DNA from: Candidatus Parcubacteria bacterium
GTDB taxonomy: Bacteria; Patescibacteriota; Minisyncoccia; Phycocordibacterales; UBA6065
NCBI GenBank assembly: GCA_039796155.1
Contig: JBDKKJ010000002.1
Coordinates: 31,365 to 95,364, forward strand
Length of the DNA stretch: 64,000 nucleotides
Direction: 5' to 3'
Part shown: one piece after another, positions 27,583 to 33,417 of the stretch
Position numbering within the stretch: the stretch's first letter is position 1
Layout of the letters: each line of letters starts with the position of its first letter
Notes under the pieces: model-generated
The model's database searches: none
Seen by the model: the letters and a program-made list of their open reading frames with translations, nothing else
Told to the model about the DNA's origin: nothing
Made by a program: the position numbers and the translations under genes

Positions 27583-27655
27583 CCGCCCATAGCTCAGTCG
27601 GTAGAGCAGCTCCCTTTTAAGGAGAAGGTCGTTGGTTCGATTCCAACTGGGCGGA
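27583..27655 (+). tRNA. tRNA-Lys (anticodon TTT)
   Basis: Manual cloverleaf: acceptor ccgccca/tgggcgg, D-arm tagctcagtcggtagagc, anticodon loop cTTTTaa, T-arm gttggttcgattccaac; CCA not encoded. Confidence 0.85.
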
Positions 27656-27739: not shown

Positions 27740-29179
27740 ATGGACGAAAGCAACAAGGAAAAATTAGCAGTCTTACTCAACACTGAAGAGTGGCAAGTTT
27801 TCGAGTGTAAGGGTGCGGCAATAAAGCCTGCAAAGCTCATGGAGACCGTTATTGCTTTTGCTAATACCAACGGCGGCACAATTGTCATCGGTCTAGAAGA
27901 TCCCAAGAAAGCAACAGGTGAAAAAAGATTATTAGGAATAAGTAAATATGCCGACAATGTATCGAGCTTTTTGGCTCTTCTTGCAAAAGATATAGAGCCA
28001 CCACTTATAGATTTTTCTCACGAAGAATTTGAGATAACAAATGTAGAGGGTAAGGCAGACAAGCTTATTCTCTTTAGGATAGATAAAAGCGATGATGTGC
28101 ATTCGCTAAAGAATGGAGATACCTATGTAAGAAAGGGTAATCAGAATCAGAAAATCGGCGCTTCTGAAATAATTCGGCTAAAGTACGAAAAGGGCTCGAT
28201 CAAGTTCGAATCTGAGATGTCTAATTTGGATCAATTTGATGATGTTGATACTGATTTACTAAAAAAGTTTAAAGATGATACCGACGGTAAAGGTAGTGAT
28301 TGGCAATTCTTTAAAGACAACGGCCTCGCTATAAAGAAGCGCAACAAGTTCTTTTTAACCAAAGGCGGAGGACTGCTCTTCGGAAAGAATCCATCTGTTC
28401 TTCTTGGTAGTAAATCGAGCATAAAAATATCAAGATTCTTTGGTACGAAACAATCATTCACCGGTACGCCGAATTTGGTTCATAAACCACTTACTCTCGA
28501 AGGTCCTCTTTTGCTACAAATAACTGCCGCTGTTGATTATTTCAGGCAAGTGGTTAGGACGTCTCCTCCAAAACTCAGTGGTTCAACATTCAAGCCAAGT
28601 CTGCTTATTCCTGAGTCGGCATTCCAAGAGGCCGTAACCAATGCCGTGATACATAGAAATTATTCTATACAGAATGATATTCAGGTTAGATTTTTTGATG
28701 ACCATATTGAGATCGAAAGCCCGGGAACATATCCTGGACACGTTACTCCTGCGAACATAAGGCGAGAACGATTCGCCCGTAATCCGATAATTCAGAGAAC
28801 TCTAAATCGGTTTGGTGATGCTCCGAACTTGGATATCGGAGAGGGAGTGGACCGTATGTTCAAGGTTATGAAGCAAAAGAACTTGTATGAGCCGCTTTAT
28901 CAGCCAGCAACTCTGTTTCCAAATTCCGTGATGGTGGTCTTGTTTAATCTTCAAAAAATGGAGGCTTGGGATACGGTAAGCAATTATCTCGATAAGAATT
29001 TAAAGATTACTAACGAGCAGTCGAGAAATATCACAGGTATCACTGATACAGTAAAGATGTCACGTCTTTTCAAACAGTGGGTTGAAAATGGTCTTTTAAA
29101 AAAGGCAGAAGGAAGATCCAAAAGGGATATGTATTATTACAAGGCGGGGCAGGAGCTTTCTGCGGTTCTATTTTCATAG
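27740..29179 (+). CDS. AlbA_2 (Schlafen-like) DNA-binding domain / HATPase_c_4-like putative regulator
   Basis: N-terminus …WQVFECKGAAIKPAKLMETVIAFANTNGGTIVIGLED… resembles the 'divergent AAA/AlbA_2' domain; C-terminal half resembles the ATPase-like domain that accompanies it. Confidence 0.45.
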   Translation: MDESNKEKLAVLLNTEEWQVFECKGAAIKPAKLMETVIAFANTNGGTIVIGLEDPKKATGEKRLLGISKYADNVSSFLALLAKDIEPPLIDFSHEEFEITNVEGKADKLILFRIDKSDDVHSLKNGDTYVRKGNQNQKIGASEIIRLKYEKGSIKFESEMSNLDQFDDVDTDLLKKFKDDTDGKGSDWQFFKDNGLAIKKRNKFFLTKGGGLLFGKNPSVLLGSKSSIKISRFFGTKQSFTGTPNLVHKPLTLEGPLLLQITAAVDYFRQVVRTSPPKLSGSTFKPSLLIPESAFQEAVTNAVIHRNYSIQNDIQVRFFDDHIEIESPGTYPGHVTPANIRRERFARNPIIQRTLNRFGDAPNLDIGEGVDRMFKVMKQKNLYEPLYQPATLFPNSVMVVLFNLQKMEAWDTVSNYLDKNLKITNEQSRNITGITDTVKMSRLFKQWVENGLLKKAEGRSKRDMYYYKAGQELSAVLFS

Positions 29180-29229: not shown

Positions 29230-30579
29230 TTAGGAATCTTCATTTTCACAGGCCTTTTCAGCTAATTTGATTTGTTTATTCGCGAGTAGGATTTTACTCC
29301 TCAAACATCCTAACAGTTCTCGTTTTTCCACCATCGTTCCTTCCCGTAAAACATATTTTGCATAATTTCGTATATCGATATCTTCGACTTTGATCACTTT
29401 AGTTTTCACGCCAAGCATCGCTGATTGAAACCTCTTGTTTCGTTCGATTTCCGTTTTGATTTTCTCTTTCATACCTATCTCATTGAGGTCGATTGTATCG
29501 GCCACAGACGTTAGTTGTTCTATAAGAGCCTCTTCCGATATATAGCCACCTTTGCACGCTTTATCATTGTACTTGGTGCAACCGTAGTAGACGTATCGAT
29601 GTATGTTGCCGTTCTTCTGTTTCTTGAACTTCTCGTCGGCCGTGATGCCTGAGCCGCAGAGCCCACAGCTCATGAGCTTGGTGAAGGCGAATTCCTTGCT
29701 CTCTACCCGTATGACATGCTGACTTATAGCTCCCTGTACCTTGTCGAAAAGATCCTTTGATATGAGCGGCTCATGCTTGCCTTGATACCAGTTACCGCTT
29801 CCTCGTGGATATTCGAATGTACCGTAATAGAAATGGTTGCGGAGGATCAGATATACATTGGAGAGGGTGAGGGGTTTGTCATATCGCGATTTGAAATGCA
29901 TGTCGTCTTTGAGCCATGAATAGATTTTACGGCCGCTATACCCCTCATATGCCACCTTATGGAATATCTGCTGGATTATTGCCCCTCTCTTCGGATCAAT
30001 CTTAATCTGGCAACATTCATCCTTGTTCTTTGAATTGATATAGCCTGTGGGCGCTACGCAGGGCCAGAGGCCCATCTCGACTCTGGCTCGGAGGCCTCTC
30101 TTCACATTGATGCGACGGTTATCATTTTCAAGTTTTGCTTGTGAGCCGAGAATCATGAGGAGGAACTTTTCATTCGGGTTATTAGTGAATCTCTGCCCAT
30201 ACGTTCTGATTTCTATGAGCTTACCCGCATCCATGAGATCGACGATTCGACCAAGGTCGCCTGCGTTTCTCGATATACGATCCGGTGCCCATGTGAGTAT
30301 TCCGTTGAACTTTCCCGTTTTTATTTCCTCCACGATCTCATTGAATACCGGCCTCTGCCCAGTTTCCTTGGCTGAATGTGACTCCTTTTTTATCTCCGTT
30401 ATGTCGAGCTTCTCGCTATCAGCAAGGCGAAGCATCTCCTTGATCTGCGAGTCGATGGAAAGTACCTGCTGTTCCTCTGATTCCGTCGATTTCCTCGCGT
30501 ACAGGCAGTATTTCATCTTTATAGGAACTACTATTTTGGCCGGGGTCCCTAAAGGCGCTTGTATCGTATTGTTGTTCAT
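29230..30579 (-). CDS. large serine recombinase (resolvase/integrase family)
   Basis: N-terminal catalytic domain (YARKSTESEEQQ…SIDSQ…WAPDRISRN), recombinase domain, C-terminal Cys-rich zinc ribbon and coiled-coil; 449 aa (true start may be the internal ATG at ~30516). Confidence 0.8.
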   Translation of the reverse strand: MNNNTIQAPLGTPAKIVVPIKMKYCLYARKSTESEEQQVLSIDSQIKEMLRLADSEKLDITEIKKESHSAKETGQRPVFNEIVEEIKTGKFNGILTWAPDRISRNAGDLGRIVDLMDAGKLIEIRTYGQRFTNNPNEKFLLMILGSQAKLENDNRRINVKRGLRARVEMGLWPCVAPTGYINSKNKDECCQIKIDPKRGAIIQQIFHKVAYEGYSGRKIYSWLKDDMHFKSRYDKPLTLSNVYLILRNHFYYGTFEYPRGSGNWYQGKHEPLISKDLFDKVQGAISQHVIRVESKEFAFTKLMSCGLCGSGITADEKFKKQKNGNIHRYVYYGCTKYNDKACKGGYISEEALIEQLTSVADTIDLNEIGMKEKIKTEIERNKRFQSAMLGVKTKVIKVEDIDIRNYAKYVLREGTMVEKRELLGCLRSKILLANKQIKLAEKACENEDS

Positions 30580-30668: not shown

Positions 30669-30697
30669 CTTGACAAGTAGCTCTACAATGTATATAA
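30669..30697 (+). promoter_or_regulatory. consensus sigma70-type promoter upstream of the DGR target gene
   Basis: TTGACA (30669-30674), 17-nt spacer, TATAAT (30692-30697). Confidence 0.45.
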
Positions 30698-30729
30698 TAT
30701 AATAGTAAGTTCTTTGATATTACTTGCAT

Positions 30730-30780
30730 GTAGTCATAGCCAAAAGGCCTTATTTCATGAGGCTTCCTGGCTATGACTAC
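30730..30780. repeat. 12-bp perfect inverted repeat in the 5' leader of the DGR target gene
   Basis: gtagtcatagcc (30730-30741) / ggctatgactac (30769-30780) with 27-nt spacer. Confidence 0.6.
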
Positions 30781-30854: not shown

Positions 30855-31511
30855 ATGAATAACATATTCACAATGAGTCAGGGCGCCGGCCAAAAACTTG
30901 AATTCGCGTTCGAACGCAACGACGGAAACACGTCGGACTTGGACTGGCTGTCGACGGGTGAAAACCTCAAGTCGGTCATCCTGCTCGCGCGAGGCGAGGC
31001 GGAATTAACCGTTAAGGCCAAACCTGTCCCAACTCCTGAATCTAAGGTTGCGAGCGACACCATCATCCGTGTCGACCGCTCGGTCAAGCCAACCTATCCC
31101 GACTGGGTGAAGGAAGTCCTTCATCCTGATCTGGAAAAGTCCGGCCCGACCGAATATAGCATCGCCACAATCGACCAATGGCTCCACGAAGGCCAGAAGA
31201 ATGGCAAATGGACCACGGGCAACGTGATCTATGCAAACCTGAAGGACAACGATGAGGTAGCCCTCAAAACCTGTCTCGGACTGCGCGACCTTGAAGAAAT
31301 CCAAAAGAAAGGCATCGCCTTTTTCCGGAAATACTTCAAGGGCAAAGCAGTATTTGGATGGGCTGGTGCTGTGCGGAACCGTCGCGACGACCTGAGTGCC
31401 CCGTATCTCTGCGAGCGCGGTGACGAGGTTGTCCTCGGCTGGAGCTGGGCTGACGGCAGTTGGAGCGGCAACGTTCCAGCTCTCCGCCACGCAAGTAGTC
31501 CTCAAGCCTAA
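30855..31511 (+). CDS. DGR target protein with C-terminal variable region (C-type-lectin-like VR)
   Basis: 218 aa; last ~42 codons (VRNRRDDLSAPYLCERGDEVVLGWSWADGSWSGNVPALRHA) correspond to the VR matched by the downstream TR; markedly GC-rich relative to surroundings. Confidence 0.7.
   Translation: MNNIFTMSQGAGQKLEFAFERNDGNTSDLDWLSTGENLKSVILLARGEAELTVKAKPVPTPESKVASDTIIRVDRSVKPTYPDWVKEVLHPDLEKSGPTEYSIATIDQWLHEGQKNGKWTTGNVIYANLKDNDEVALKTCLGLRDLEEIQKKGIAFFRKYFKGKAVFGWAGAVRNRRDDLSAPYLCERGDEVVLGWSWADGSWSGNVPALRHASSPQA
31370..31494 (+). repeat. DGR variable region (VR)
   Basis: 125-bp near-repeat of 31892-32016; 18 mismatches, every one at a position where the TR has adenine. Confidence 0.8.
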
Positions 31512-31544
31512 GACACTGAGATTTAGCTCTTTGTACTTAGTTCT

Positions 31545-31585
31545 TAGCCCGGCGTCGCGCAAGCGATGTCCGGGCTAATTTTTTA
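31545..31585 (+). terminator. GC-rich hairpin with GCAA tetraloop plus T-run immediately downstream of VR (terminator / DGR-associated hairpin)
   Basis: tagcccggcgtcgc-GCAA-gcgatgtccgggcta followed by ttttttatt. Confidence 0.55.
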
Positions 31586-31891
31586 TTAAAATAATGAACG
31601 AAGTGAATATATTTTCATTATCCCCTTTGGGGATTTTTTATATATCGATATATAATAATTTCGGTAGTAGGCGAATCTGCCGGCGGTTACGGCTTCTGGC
31701 GGCCGAATCCAGTATCCATGCGCTGAGAGCGAAGGAGATTAAGATTTCTTTCGGAGGGCGCATGCAGACACTTCAAAAAATGAAGCTACTTGGTGCAGAA
31801 TGCTATGGCATTATGATGCCGAATACGATTCAACCCTGAGATCGGCGTGGGCCTTCAAGGGGTGGTGGCATGGAAAGCATTGTGCACGTAG

Positions 31892-32016
31892 TGTGCGGAA
31901 CCGTAACGACAACCTGAATGCCCCGTATCTCTACGAGAACGGTGACAAGGTTGTCCTCAACTGGAACTGGACTGACAACAATTGGAACGGCAACAATCCA
32001 GCTCTCCGCCACGCAA
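31892..32016 (+). repeat. DGR template repeat (TR)
   Basis: Adenine-rich (AAC codons) copy of VR; non-coding template; ORF-track entries overlapping it (31800..32114, 31918..32355) are shadow ORFs. Confidence 0.8.
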
Positions 32017-32021
32017 CTCGC

Positions 32022-32384
32022 TCATTTCTCTCTGGCTTTGGCTGGGGAGTTTTGTTTGACAAGTTGCCCACTCCATCCTCCGAGGTTTCGGCCAATCTCA
32101 TCAAGTTTCACTGAGAGCTCAATATACTTCTTGTCGTCGAGAGACTTAACTTCCCAAAGAATCATGAGTAAGACATTAAGTGCGTCGAGCTTGCGTATGG
32201 CCAGACGAACGTATGGATATTTTTCCTGGGACGATAGGAAACTGGCGGCGGCGATAGCCTCGATCGCTTCAATAAACAAAGAATCTATGCGATATCCAAA
32301 TGAGTATCTGTCTTGTTTCGGTATATCATTACAAAATCCATGCCACAACAAATAAGTCTCTTTGATTTTCCGCATGACGGGCAA
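32022..32384 (-). CDS. avd: Avd-like accessory variability determinant (four-helix-bundle family), encoded antisense to TR-RT
   Basis: 120 aa; …DRYSFGYRIDSLFIEAIEAIAAAS… and C-terminal EIGRNLGGWSGQLVKQ resemble Bordetella phage bAvd (…EVGRILGSWIARVNRK) from memory; basic C-terminus. Confidence 0.5.
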   Translation of the reverse strand: MPVMRKIKETYLLWHGFCNDIPKQDRYSFGYRIDSLFIEAIEAIAAASFLSSQEKYPYVRLAIRKLDALNVLLMILWEVKSLDDKKYIELSVKLDEIGRNLGGWSGQLVKQNSPAKAREK

Positions 32385-33417
32385 GATTCCGTTGGGGGGG
32401 GGTTCGCCTCAGGGTTCCGGCCACATCAAATGTATTCATACCTACAAGGATATCATTTCTCTTGAAAATCTACTTGAAGCATGGAAAGAATTTAGAAATG
32501 GCAAGCGCAAAAGGAGAGATGTTTTAGAATTCGAGAGGGACCTCATGCAAAACATCATTTCGCTTCATGATGACTTGGTCGCAAAATCTTATAGACACGC
32601 TCATTACAAAGCATTTAAAATAAACGATCCGAAGCCGAGAGATATCCATAAAGCCACGGTGCGTGACAGGTTGTTACATCATGCAATCTATAGGAAACTC
32701 TATCCATTTTTTGATAAAACATTTATTACCGATTCATATTCATGCAGGATGGGTAAGGGGACGCATAAAGCTCTCGACAGATTTAGAAATTTTGCAGGGA
32801 AAGTATCAAAAAATCATACACGTACAGCTTGGGTTCTCAAATGTGATATACGCAAGTTTTTCGCATCAATAGATCAAAAAATCCTGGTATCGATTCTTGA
32901 AAATTATATATCTGACAAGGATATTATTAATCTTTTTTCGCACATCATCAGTAGTTTCCATTCCACAGTGAAAAACGTTGGCCTTCCTCTTGGAAATCTT
33001 ACATCGCAGCTCCTAGTGAATATATACATGAACAGGTTCGATCGGTTCATGAAACACAAATTAAAAACAAAATATTATATCCGTTACGCTGATGATTTTG
33101 TTATCTTGTCTTGCGACAGGATGTATCTCAAAGGATTGATTTCGCTCATCTCGAATTTTTTGAAAGATAGCTTAAAATTGAGGTTACATCCTGATAAAGT
33201 GTTCATAAAGACGTCTGCTTCCGGTGTTGATTTTCTAGGGTGGGTACATTTTTCCAATCATCGAATATTAAGAACAAGTGCAAGGAAAAGAATGATGAGG
33301 AATATCAGGAAGAACTGTGGAAAATCTGAGTCCGTGCAGTCATATCTTGGACTCATACAACACGGCAATTCCTATAAACTTACAAAGGAAATAAGCAGCT
33401 TGACTGTCTTTTTATAG
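32362..33417 (+). CDS. DGR-type reverse transcriptase
   Basis: RT motifs including YADD (YIRYADDFVILS) and the DGR-diagnostic 'LPLGNLTSQLLVNIYMN' (SQ in place of group-II-intron QGxxxSP); 351 aa; directly downstream of TR. Confidence 0.85.
   Translation: MIFRMTGKIPLGGGSPQGSGHIKCIHTYKDIISLENLLEAWKEFRNGKRKRRDVLEFERDLMQNIISLHDDLVAKSYRHAHYKAFKINDPKPRDIHKATVRDRLLHHAIYRKLYPFFDKTFITDSYSCRMGKGTHKALDRFRNFAGKVSKNHTRTAWVLKCDIRKFFASIDQKILVSILENYISDKDIINLFSHIISSFHSTVKNVGLPLGNLTSQLLVNIYMNRFDRFMKHKLKTKYYIRYADDFVILSCDRMYLKGLISLISNFLKDSLKLRLHPDKVFIKTSASGVDFLGWVHFSNHRILRTSARKRMMRNIRKNCGKSESVQSYLGLIQHGNSYKLTKEISSLTVFL

Follow-up and report, generated by a model that had tools for sequence, protein, structure and literature searches.

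The backward-facing avd gene between TR and RT at 32022-32384 is the standard layout of CPR DGRs and an ordinary finding; less has been described of what surrounds avd in this cassette, namely a set of conserved RNA elements and a hypervariable G tract. The cassette lies in a stretch of 64,000 nt from a Candidatus Parcubacteria bacterium, which was analysed as a whole and is called the window here. It is a typical CPR-type DGR of architecture B3, with the order target/VR - TR - (avd) - RT, and it is currently active; we consider it likely that it is expressed from three transcription units. As stated, the orientation of avd is one further example of the commonest CPR DGR layout and changes nothing. 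The question that reaches beyond the Bordetella model is how a DGR functions when a gene on the opposite strand occupies the TR-RT spacer.

Layout and activity of the cassette

The cassette has the following components:

30855-31511, plus strand: DGR target gene of 218 aa with the VR at its 3' end (open reading frame; no Pfam or NCBIfam match)
31359-31494, plus strand: VR, inside the target ORF, 83% identical to TR
31545-31585, plus strand: putative terminator of the target gene, a GC-rich hairpin followed by a T run (read from the sequence; counterpart in relatives)
31881-32016, plus strand: TR of 136 nt, from repeat comparison with the VR
32022-32384, minus strand: avd, 120 aa from the TTG start at 32384; alternative ATG at 32375
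32392-33417, plus strand: DGR RT, probable start TTG at 32392, fused to the G run; alternative ATG at 32374

By these coordinates avd fills the TR-RT gap and is encoded antisense to its two neighbours. Wu et al. (NAR 2018, PMC5758913) catalogue this arrangement, TR-(avd)-RT with a reverse-strand avd, as architecture B3 and report it for 90% of their CPR set. They also note that a cassette with parts on both strands requires no fewer than two transcription units. The window falls into this host group, its relatives being Patescibacteria MAGs. Comparison of their cassettes revealed the B3 layout in 141 of 145 related loci with sufficient upstream sequence, genome and metagenome loci taken together; an RT adjacent and divergent to avd was present in 75/78 genome loci and 66/67 metagenome loci. 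Relative to all fetched loci (80 from genomes, 80 from metagenomes) these numbers are 75/80 and 66/80, the remainder nearly all lacking upstream sequence. The suggestion of an unusual DGR architecture, one of two possibilities raised in an earlier note on this DNA, finds no support in view of the B3 entry in that catalogue and of the related loci.

Alignment of the repeats showed that 20 of 23 TR/VR mismatches fall at TR adenines. In a near-identical contig (L082) the VR differs from that of the window at 20 positions, all 20 at TR adenines, and the flanks show ~12 differences in ~1500 nt. Since the VR differences are confined to TR adenines and the flanks are nearly identical, the two sequences point to ongoing mutagenic retrohoming. 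A VR with adenine-specific mismatches lies 450-520 nt upstream of TR in 71/77 loci. At the 3' end of both repeats the GC-rich CCAGCTCTCCGCCACGCAA is the same and the sequences diverge after it, which marks a putative IMH/IMH*.

The hairpin and T run at 31545-31585 were not picked up by a terminator pattern scan. Three plus-strand ORFs (31594-31839, 31800-32114 and 31918-32355) were rejected as genes, as they overlap the non-coding RNA, TR or antisense avd and have no family matches; 31918-32355, the one of the three that was checked in relatives, is closed there.

Start codons of avd and RT

Two further features lie at the divergent junction of the genes:

32394-32402, no strand assigned: G9 homopolymer at the avd/RT divergent junction
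32447-32455, minus strand: putative avd promoter, extended -10-like (TG at 32455-54, TATCCT at 32452-47), within the RT codons K-D-I

The RT shows a match to RVT_1 (E=9.7e-25), and its translation contains LGNLTSQ and YADD, the motifs of a DGR-type RT. The mechanical ORF (32362-33417, plus strand, TTG start, 351 aa) overlaps the avd ORF head-to-head by 23 nt, as the earlier note had described for starts at 32384 and 32362. These ORF boundaries are correct as drawn; the RT start at 32362, however, finds no support in the comparison, in which the relatives indicate a start at or after the G tract. In 119/140 relatives an in-frame RT ATG follows the tract ~40 nt further on (median +42). In the window and in three further loci (L083, L124 and L151) the only RT start is a GTG or TTG fused to the G run. 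Where the window has the TTG at 32384, 72/140 relatives likewise have a start codon. JGI calls place the RT start at ATG 32374 and the Avd start at ATG 32375, with a 2-nt overlap in CATG. The probable starts of the RT are TTG 32392 and, as the alternative, ATG 32374, from either of which translation would pass through G9. The true avd/RT overlap as judged from the aligned starts is 0-11 nt and not 23. The head-to-head overlap would then mostly reflect start-codon choice, and it arises in the window because the start that RT normally has beyond the junction tract appears to have been lost in this lineage. Gene callers are currently inconsistent for the RT and avd start codons, and the comparative data would help their annotation.

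The other possibility raised earlier, a later non-ATG start of RT together with an internal divergent promoter of avd, is favoured by this start analysis and by a -10 motif in the RT 5' codons. The pattern TGnTAnnnT occurs at the avd-promoter position in 126/140 loci, and the first Ile codon of the RT K-D-I is ATC in 89% of loci, against an ATC usage of 31% overall. The -10 of the window (TATCCT) is weaker than those of the relatives. From this conservation we infer that the extended -10 serves as avd promoter. A leaderless avd mRNA was also considered; it would begin at an ATG that lies 7 nt past the -10 and is read on the other strand as the RT His codon. The idea is not supported: this upstream ATG on the avd strand is present in 121/148 loci and is in frame and open in 22/121, about the chance expectation, a result that is neutral on phase variation.

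The junction tract

The G9 homopolymer is the only run of G or C of 7 or more in the 64-kb window, and it lies inside the sole open RT start frame. At the same junction position, poly-G of 7-13 was found in 48/76 genome loci and poly-G of at least 7 in 52/70 metagenome loci, where the tracts were found by a protein-guided scan; no metagenome contig matched the exact junction pattern of the window when the G run was allowed to vary in length. Most other loci carry (GT)n, (TTGG)n, (ATTG)n, (TTCG)n, (TGAC)n or (CTGG)n at the junction. The 972 kb of fetched loci contain 102 G/C runs of 8 or more, approximately the number of junction tracts. Within three groups of loci with identical or near-identical (at least 95%) flanks the run length differs by one G.

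This concentration of simple-sequence tracts at one position in most loci, and the one-G differences, are what would be expected if the tract were a programmed phase-variation switch in which slippage turns RT or Avd ON or OFF. In the window, slippage would move the RT out of the frame set by its TTG/ATG start. In relatives, it would instead act on the 5'-UTR/promoter region that both genes share, or on the frame of those Avd ORFs that have an N-terminal extension. The overlap of the starts would then be part of a bidirectional switch and no accident. Such a switch fits four loci, the window among them, in which the only usable RT start lies upstream of the run and in frame, and also extended Avd ORFs that read the tract as PPP. 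On the other hand, the counts come from assembled sequences, in which one-base homopolymer differences can be assembly errors; the window and the near-identical L082 are both G9; the tract falls within neither ORF in the majority of loci; and a sequence so rich in G and T may have a structural role or belong to a UTR instead. Weighing these points, we regard a programmed switch as possible but rather unlikely. Literature searches for DGRs combined with phase variation or SSRs returned nothing on point, and Paul et al. 2017 might describe the tract. A hypermutable junction tract could switch diversification on and off in populations.

Conserved RNA elements on both sides of TR

Comparison of related loci revealed a structured leader 5' of TR and a short element 3' of it:

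31651-31656, plus strand: TATAAT, -10 hexamer of the putative TR-RNA promoter (conserved in position and form)
31662-31887, plus strand: structured 5' leader of the DGR RNA (RNAalifold and pair counts)
31663-64/31709-10, 31670-72/31702-04 and 31679-88/31691-700: leader helices
31719-24/31757-62, 31730-40/31743-53 and 31771-74/31782-85: leader helices
31793-804/31876-87 (long-range), 31807-11/31816-20 and 31833-36/31860-63: leader helices
32028-32049, plus strand: putative Avd-binding stem-loop, terminator-like, 12 nt after TR, with a 9-bp stem and a UUUG tetraloop
32050-32058, plus strand: near-invariant U tract, TTTTGTTTG in the window, consensus GAGTTTTGTTTT

The leader is ~225 nt long and covaries. 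RNAalifold on 53 sequences predicted 60 pairs, 42 of them with compensatory changes, and left the TR body unpaired. In pair counts 97.3% of cells were paired and 44 of 62 pairs had double changes; none of 500 shuffles scored as high, and slid controls reached 37-55%. The -10 hexamer is kept in position and form across the 66 loci where the leader motif was located, and relatives show an extended -10 (TGnTAnnnT) 6 nt before GGTAGTAGG. We infer from this that TATAAT at 31651-31656 is the promoter of the TR RNA. A pairing of the unpaired leader GAGAG with CUCUC after TR was considered and set aside; the alignment variants show no obvious covariation.

Rfam 15 detected only tRNAs in the whole window at gathering score, and a permissive scan (E<=10) of 31500-32500 gave chance-level matches, none of them to the RT-associated RNA motifs RT-1 to RT-19 (Weinberg 2017). 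The one structured DGR RNA that a literature search brought up was the RT-10 motif of BPP-1; Paul et al. 2017 might describe the leader. The leader, which Rfam lacks, is a testable candidate for how a DGR functions with a gene-filled spacer.

Within the TR-RT spacer, nucleotide-level constraint is limited to the first ~45 nt after TR, which hold the covarying 9-bp hairpin and UUUUGUUU. The stem-loop has a folding energy of -14.9 kcal/mol (z = -3.6); 95.5% of cells are paired, 6 of 9 pairs show double changes and none of 500 shuffles scored as high. It overlaps Avd codons 110-117 in the disordered tail, and it is retained where the avd stop codon falls in the loop, so that the ORF does not reach the 5' arm. 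In Avd codons 106-109 the third positions show 86-100% conservation, compared with 30-60% elsewhere in avd, and codons 115-117, like 106-109, are invariant at the nucleotide level. The U-tract motif was found in 77/80 genome loci and 76/80 metagenome loci. A terminator scan matched 32028-32049 followed by TTTTGTTTGA, a GC-rich hairpin plus U tract. Stem-loop and U tract most likely double as an intrinsic terminator as judged from this pattern, although the U tract could be an RNP contact instead. The conserved C-terminal tail of Avd (KQNSPxKxGEK) would, as a part of the explanation that we consider likely as a whole, be a by-product of the avd ORF reading into an RNA element of the opposite strand. 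This minimal 3' element, which has nucleotides in common with the Avd tail, is a concrete, testable candidate.

The same comparison bears on the claim that the spacer RNA would be the antisense of avd coding sequence. The claim holds for the first ~45 nt after TR, where hairpin and U tract lie over the codons of the Avd tail; in the remaining avd there is no nucleotide-level or structural constraint. Beyond the 3' element, RNAalifold found 0 conserved pairs in antisense avd; applied to the leader in the same way, it gave 51 pairs, 39 of them compensatory. The concern over an antisense priming spacer RNA largely dissolves, because the constraint covers only ~45 nt, the rest is unstructured, and a structured leader with a putative promoter lies 5' of TR.

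The alternative that follows from the earlier note is that TR and RT form one long transcript as in BPP-1, with antisense avd as the functional spacer, doubly constrained throughout. The 140-nt Sp of BPP-1 (TR to brt) does carry a priming site, the Thumb Ring and a bRT-binding stem-loop, the junction has no clear RT promoter or ribosome-binding site, and the RT ORF of the window is open upstream to 32362. Double constraint is difficult to reconcile with the free synonymous positions of avd codons 1-105 (identity 0.3-0.6) and with the lack of a conserved pair on either strand of the antisense-avd segment. In addition, the near-invariant hairpin and U tract follow directly after TR, the TR RNA has a conserved putative promoter of its own, and the spacer functions could reside in its large structured domain at the 5' side. 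We therefore judge a functional co-transcript to be improbable.

The avd gene and its protein

The minus-strand ORF 32022-32384 is a genuine, protein-coding avd gene. Profile searches detected Pfam bAvd PF22296 (E=5.4e-8) over profile positions 15-104 of 107 and NCBIfam DivGenRetAVD, NF033474 (E=1.2e-14) over positions 1-102 of 104; the scores of 33.7 and 54.5 bits are below the respective curated cut-offs of 40 and 80. A total of 422 homologs were found, with 61-99% identity among the best 120 of the 422; among the matches listed, almost all Avd homologs carry a precomputed PF22296 annotation. The AlphaFold model (mean pLDDT 86) showed a four-helix bundle (helices 2-15, 20-45, 49-75 and 81-97) followed by a disordered tail (residues 103-117). 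Foldseek with this model retrieved 2gsc and the BPP-1 Avd (4dwl and the Avd chains of 8ub7/8ubb) with TM 0.71-0.79 and probability 1.00; a PDB search with the Avd family sequence profile gave no match, so the likeness came from fold comparison. The plus-strand shadow ORF across avd contains stops in 80/80 relatives. In avd codons 1-105 the third positions are free (identity 0.3-0.6), like in any gene; they coincide with those of the plus-strand shadow ORF and alone do not single out the avd frame. The profile, fold and homology data confirm the earlier reading of this ORF as an Avd-like gene antisense to TR and RT and show it to be conserved at the protein level, and it is the only Avd-like sequence in the window. 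The opposite reading, a chance or shadow ORF in a DGR without Avd (architecture A), could appeal to Pfam and NCBIfam scores below the curated thresholds and has next to no chance of being right in view of full-length profile matches, hundreds of homologs with ~60-99% protein identity, the codon-position pattern, a confident four-helix model resembling 4dwl and the closed antisense frames of the relatives, which together refute it.

Proposed transcription units

Three transcription units can be proposed from the conservation of these motifs, in a group whose promoters and terminators are uncharacterised. The first would be a ~400-nt non-coding DGR RNA, transcribed from its own -10 promoter (~31651) and composed of the ~225-nt structured leader, TR and, 12 nt after TR, the 9-bp stem-loop with its U tract. 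With a terminator at this place, the template RNA would mostly not run antisense through avd. In the second unit, avd would be transcribed leftward from the extended -10 promoter within the first ~27 RT codons, and in the third, RT would be transcribed rightward from the avd/RT junction. Neither a convincing RT promoter nor a Shine-Dalgarno sequence was found at the junction, and against a separate unit for RT it can be said that RT could be translated from read-through of the TR RNA. The promoter sites were chosen by comparative conservation and not by a generic sigma-70 scan, which highlighted 31586-31613 and sites inside RT and not the conserved promoter sites. Promoters nested in each other's coding regions are testable candidates.

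More tentatively, and with somewhat more doubt than confidence, the RNA of B3/CPR cassettes may be permuted, i.e. an autonomous ~400-nt template with a 5' scaffold, combined with an RT and Avd gated by a slippage-prone junction tract. The protein-binding and priming scaffold would be the ~225-nt covarying domain 5' of TR, closed by the 12-bp long-range helix that abuts TR. At the 3' end a single element, on which the avd tail is overprinted, would act both as Avd-binding stem-loop and as terminator. As a separate part of this proposal, the slippage-prone G tract or microsatellite at the avd/RT junction would gate the machinery, and the mutator itself would be phase-variable. The candidates named here would be relevant to reconstituting or engineering compact CPR DGRs.

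Comparison with known systems

SSR contingency loci between divergent genes include the (TA)n promoter of hifA/hifB in Haemophilus influenzae, and poly-G tracts occur in Neisseria and Campylobacter genes. These loci likewise have a hypermutable tract between, or at the 5' ends of, divergent genes; in the window the G run lies inside the probable RT ORF. A difference is that the type of tract varies among relatives, and the likeness is one of sequence.

The B3 cassette as presented in the accessible part of Wu et al. 2018 (PMC5758913) has the identical order, orientation and host group (Patescibacteria/CPR), with no architectural difference; that part of the paper contains no description of the structured leader, the overlap of stem-loop and avd tail, or the junction repeat tract.

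Handa et al. 2024 (bioRxiv 10.1101/2023.10.23.563531) predicted stem-loops just 3' of TR in 207 of 278 Avd-containing DGRs, CPR included, most commonly with 9 bp and a tetraloop for the predicted Avd-binding stem-loop. The stem-loop at 32028-32049 matches in place (just 3' of TR), 9-bp stem and tetraloop, and by this analogy it is probably an Avd-binding site. Unlike the stem-loops of Handa et al., it is followed by the near-invariant UUUUGUUUU tract, has the look of a terminator and is embedded in the 3' end of an avd on the opposite strand.

The DGR of the Bordetella phage BPP-1 shares with the window an RT with [LIV]GxxxSQ and YxDD, a four-helix-bundle Avd (TM 0.71-0.77 to 4dwl), an adenine-specific TR to VR transfer and a stem-loop directly 3' of TR. 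Its order is mtd-avd-TR-brt (architecture B1), with avd upstream of TR on the same strand, and its 140-nt Sp between TR and brt holds the primer site, the cPRT Stop, the Thumb Ring and bRT-binding elements. In the window, by contrast, ~45 nt are conserved after TR, followed by avd on the opposite strand, and TR is preceded by the structured domain of ~225 nt.

Composition of the DGR cassette

The window contains a complete diversity-generating retroelement (DGR) with the following parts:

30855-31511, + strand: target ORF with the variable repeat (VR) within its 3' end (ORF table)
31359-31494, + strand: VR, a 136-nt direct repeat with the template repeat (TR), inside the 3' end of the target gene
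31881-32016, + strand: TR, a 136-nt direct repeat with 83% identity to VR
32022-32384, - strand: avd ORF, TTG start, 120 aa, with an in-frame ATG at 32375
32362-33417, + strand: RT ORF as listed, TTG start (ORF table)

The ORF table and the repeat search agree on the geometry of TR, opposite-strand avd-like ORF and RT described in the earlier note. TR adenines account for 20 of the 23 TR/VR mismatches. A Pfam scan matched the RT to RVT_1 (E=1e-24), and its translation contains LGNLTSQ and YADD, read by eye from the sequence; motifs of this type are a hallmark of DGR RTs. Comparison with the nearly identical contig L082, which stems from a second JGI sample, revealed about 12 differences in about 1500 nt of cassette outside VR and 20 differing positions within VR, all 20 opposite TR adenines. 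We take these VR differences as direct evidence of DGR activity in nature, and their confinement to TR adenines indicates that RT, Avd and template RNA are all expressed from the present arrangement.

Identity of the minus-strand ORF

The minus-strand ORF 32022-32384 is Avd. It matched the whole of the Pfam bAvd profile with E=5e-8 and 33.7 bits (cut-off 40) and the whole of the NCBIfam DivGenRetAVD profile with E=1e-14 and 54.5 bits (cut-off 80); both scores fall short of their cut-offs. Among 5.8 billion proteins searched, 422 homologs were detected. Identity is 61-99% for the best 120; almost all of these carry the PF22296 annotation, and the named ones among them are 'four helix bundle protein' of Patescibacteria. 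An AlphaFold model, built from an alignment of 31 homologs, has helices at residues 2-15, 20-45, 49-75 and 81-97 (mean pLDDT 86) and an unstructured tail at residues 103-117. Foldseek aligned this model with 2gsc, Bordetella phage Avd (4dwl) and the Avd chains of the DGR RNP structures 8ub7, 8ubb and 8ube (TM 0.71-0.79). A PDB search with a sequence-only profile of the family gave no match, and the family is thus distant from bAvd in sequence.

The Avd-like call of the earlier note is therefore borne out by profiles, model, structural matches and homologs. The note had also considered that the ORF might lack a four-helix bundle while a plus-strand Avd lay elsewhere, or might not be conserved as a protein; neither is the case, as the bundle is predicted, no further Avd-like sequence was found within the 64-kb window, and in a codon alignment of 81 genes the amino acids of codons 1-105 are conserved with third positions only 30-60% conserved. 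Since these third positions are also those of the plus-strand shadow ORF, they do not alone single out the avd frame; the frames antisense to avd carry stops in 80/80 relatives.

Architecture and distribution

The suggestion of an unusual DGR architecture did not hold. Wu et al. 2018 (PMC5758913) designate 'TR-(avd)-RT', with parentheses for the reverse strand, as architecture B3. The close relatives of the window cassette are all CPR/Patescibacteria MAGs. In the genome loci retrieved through the Avd alignment (80 in all), RT lies immediately upstream of avd and divergent from it in 75, and upstream sequence is missing in 2 of the other 5; the same layout was found in 66 of the 67 metagenome loci with enough sequence (80 examined). 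A VR with adenine-specific mismatches precedes TR by 450-520 nt on the RT strand in 71/77 genome loci, where TR homology stops a fixed 32 nt before a conserved motif. B3 is the norm in CPR DGRs and the layout of the window is already known; judged from these alignments, the cassette is a rigid, widespread module of which the window carries an ordinary member.

A stem-loop overlapped by the 3' end of avd

The codon alignment revealed two islands of near-invariant avd third positions, at codons 106-109 (86-100%) and 115-117 (77-97%). On the RT/TR strand their consensus reads CGCAACTCTCT-TCA-TTTCTCTCC-loop-GGGAGAG-TTTTGTTTT and corresponds to:

32028-32049, RT/TR strand: stem-loop with 9-bp stem and UUUG loop, followed by TTTTGTTTG

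This element was flagged as terminator-like in a pattern scan and has a folding energy of -14.9 kcal/mol (z = -3.6). Across relatives 95.5% of cells are paired in the helix and 6/9 pairs show compensatory double changes (0/500 shuffles as high; slid controls 37-65%). Roughly one relative in four has the avd stop codon inside the loop, and the 5' arm, then outside the ORF, is still conserved, which shows that the constraint acts on the nucleic acid. The disordered but conserved Avd tail KQNSPxKxGEK is best read as the avd ORF running into this RNA element.

The earlier note had proposed that the spacer RNA is antisense to avd. This stands for the conserved stem-loop and U tract, which overlap the avd 3' end, but the remainder (codons 1-105) shows no constraint at the nucleotide level. 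RNAalifold found zero conserved pairs over these codons on either strand, and 51 pairs in the region 5' of TR by the same procedure. With synonymous sites free and no conserved pairs, antisense-avd RNA past the stem-loop has no detectable function in these alignments.

Three plus-strand ORFs of 81-145 aa (31594-31839, 31800-32114 and 31918-32355) were rejected as genes: they have no family matches and overlap the leader, TR and antisense avd, and 31918-32355, the only one of the three tested, is closed in relatives. They are likely spurious automated gene calls.

A structured leader 5' of TR

Relatives share an extended -10 element (TGnTAnnnT) between the hairpin-plus-T-run of the target gene and TR, 6 nt before an invariant GGTAGTAGG. 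In the window we find:

31651-31656, + strand: perfect -10 TATAAT, putative promoter of the leader RNA (comparative conservation)
31662-31887, + strand: leader domain, about 225 nt, highly conserved and covarying, immediately 5' of TR

RNAalifold on 53 sequences predicted 60 leader pairs, 42 with compensatory changes, and left the TR body unpaired. Direct counting on the named structure gave 97.3% of cells paired, 44/62 pairs changed on both sides and 489 compensatory cells (0/500 shuffles as high; slid controls 37-55% paired). Pairing of 31793-31804 with 31876-31887 in a long-range helix of 12 bp closes the leader exactly at the TR start. No Rfam 15 family covers the leader, the RT-associated motifs of Weinberg et al. 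2017 included. In DGRs of this class the leader probably belongs to the template RNA.

The linker after TR (32017-32027; consensus AACTCTCTTCA) carries a second copy of the CTCTC in the stem-loop 5' arm; its complement, a conserved GAGAG left unpaired, lies in a leader internal loop (31725-31729). This complementarity could provide an alternative or long-range, cPRT-Stop-like pairing, although the aligned variants of the two segments showed no clear covariation.

Starts, candidate promoters and a repeat tract at the avd/RT junction

Aligned rightward, the junction consists of the avd N-terminus, a ATTTTGCCnGTTTT segment, a simple-sequence tract and the RT start. ATTTTGCCnGTTTT, read on the avd strand, is conserved, and its variable base is the third position of an avd-frame Pro codon, which identifies the segment as avd coding. 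The position of its TTG (32384) is occupied by a start codon in 72/140 loci. An in-frame RT ATG follows the tract in 119/140 relatives (median 42 nt beyond avd codon 1), and another 16/140 have only GTG, TTG or CTG there. The window has TCC at the canonical RT start position and TCG where the relative L002 has TTG. With the canonical start lost, the usable RT starts are only TTG 32392, fused to a G run, or ATG 32374. Three relatives (L083, L124, L151) independently have a [G/T]TG joined to a G run in the RT frame.

The 23-nt head-to-head overlap of the earlier note holds for the ORFs as listed but depends on the choice of start: it is 2 nt, in CATG, in the JGI gene calls, and TTG 32392 (RT) and TTG 32384 (avd) lie 7 nt apart without overlap. 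Whichever starts are used, the promoter and 5' UTR of each gene must lie within the other.

TG 32455-54 and TATCCT 32452-47, - strand: candidate avd extended -10 (comparative conservation)

This avd-strand TGnTAnnnT lies within RT codons (N/D)-x-I-I in 126/140 loci, and ATC encodes the first Ile in 89% of loci versus 31% ATC usage overall. This synonymous bias supports the element, a good candidate for the avd promoter. An equally convincing RT promoter was sought at the junction and not found. On the start alignment and the conserved -10, the better supported of the earlier note's alternatives is that RT starts later, at a non-ATG codon, and that an internal divergent promoter drives avd.

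The reverse complement of a conserved RT His codon gives an avd-strand ATG (32437-32439, -). In 71 loci it lies 7 nt after the inferred -10, where it would begin a leaderless mRNA; only 22/121 loci have it open and in the avd reading frame. In the window it is out of the avd frame, into which a G8 tract would bring it.

32394-32402, avd/RT junction: G9 run, the sole G/C run of at least 7 in the 64-kb window

Poly-G occurs at the same place in 48/76 genome loci (7-13 G) and 52/70 metagenome loci (at least 7 G); most remaining loci have (GT)5-16, (TTGG)7-11, (ATTG)7, (TTCG)9, (TGAC)13, (CTGG)10 or (ACTG)7. Single-G length differences occur within three groups of loci whose flanks are identical or near-identical (>=95%) (L028 vs L017/L025/L100; L118 vs L120; L128 vs L139); between assemblies, a homopolymer difference of this kind can be an artefact. 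G9 is shared by the window and L082 and lies inside the only open RT start frame of the window; where gene callers extend Avd upstream, the tract is read as PPP. As a lead, it could be a contingency tract gating RT or Avd expression by phase variation.

Flanking features

27583-27655, + strand: tRNA gene, beside the recombinase
27740-29179, + strand: AlbA_2/HATPase_c_4 protein, beside the recombinase
29230-30579, - strand: large serine recombinase (Resolvase/Recombinase/Zn_ribbon_recom; JGI Pfam marks), directly upstream of the target gene
30670-30698, + strand: perfect sigma-70 consensus TTGACA-17-TATAAT, about 160 nt upstream of the target gene start
30730-30780: inverted repeat after the sigma-70 site, 24-nt arms, 3-nt loop, 83% complementary

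The recombinase and its two neighbours are also present in L082, and the DGR may lie on or beside an integrated element. The variable protein gene may have its promoter, together with an operator or a hairpin of its 5' UTR, in the region 30670-30780. Short CT..AG/CTTAG-like repeats recur in a conserved pattern over the 50 nt or so after VR (31495-31545 and homologous loci), and relatives have small hairpins just after VR, e.g. GGGAC-TTCA-GTCCC in the related locus L021. BPP-1 has a target-site hairpin/cruciform downstream of its IMH, to which these hairpins could be equivalent.

Comparison with known systems

Neither Rfam nor the literature searched (Paul et al. 2017 lay outside its scope) yielded the leader, the terminator-like stem-loop that the avd tail overprints, the candidate nested promoters or the microsatellite at the junction, and it is these features that merit follow-up. 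In BPP-1 the 5' end of Sp, the TR-RT spacer, folds into a stem of 11 bp capped by a tetraloop, and all five Avd protomers grip it; stem-loops just 3' of TR are predicted in 207/278 Avd-containing DGRs, CPR included, most often with 9 bp and a tetraloop (Handa et al., bioRxiv 10.1101/2023.10.23.563531). The window stem-loop resembles this Avd-binding element in its tetraloop and its position directly 3' of TR; its stem has the modal 9 bp, versus 11 bp in BPP-1. The DGR RNA of this class would be a self-contained transcript of about 400 nt comprising leader, TR, stem-loop and U tract. Primer, cPRT Stop, Thumb Ring and bRT-binding are all located 3' of the Avd-binding stem-loop in BPP-1, whereas the window cassette has its structured RNA domain 5' of TR rather than in a 3' spacer; this 5' domain may supply the corresponding functions.
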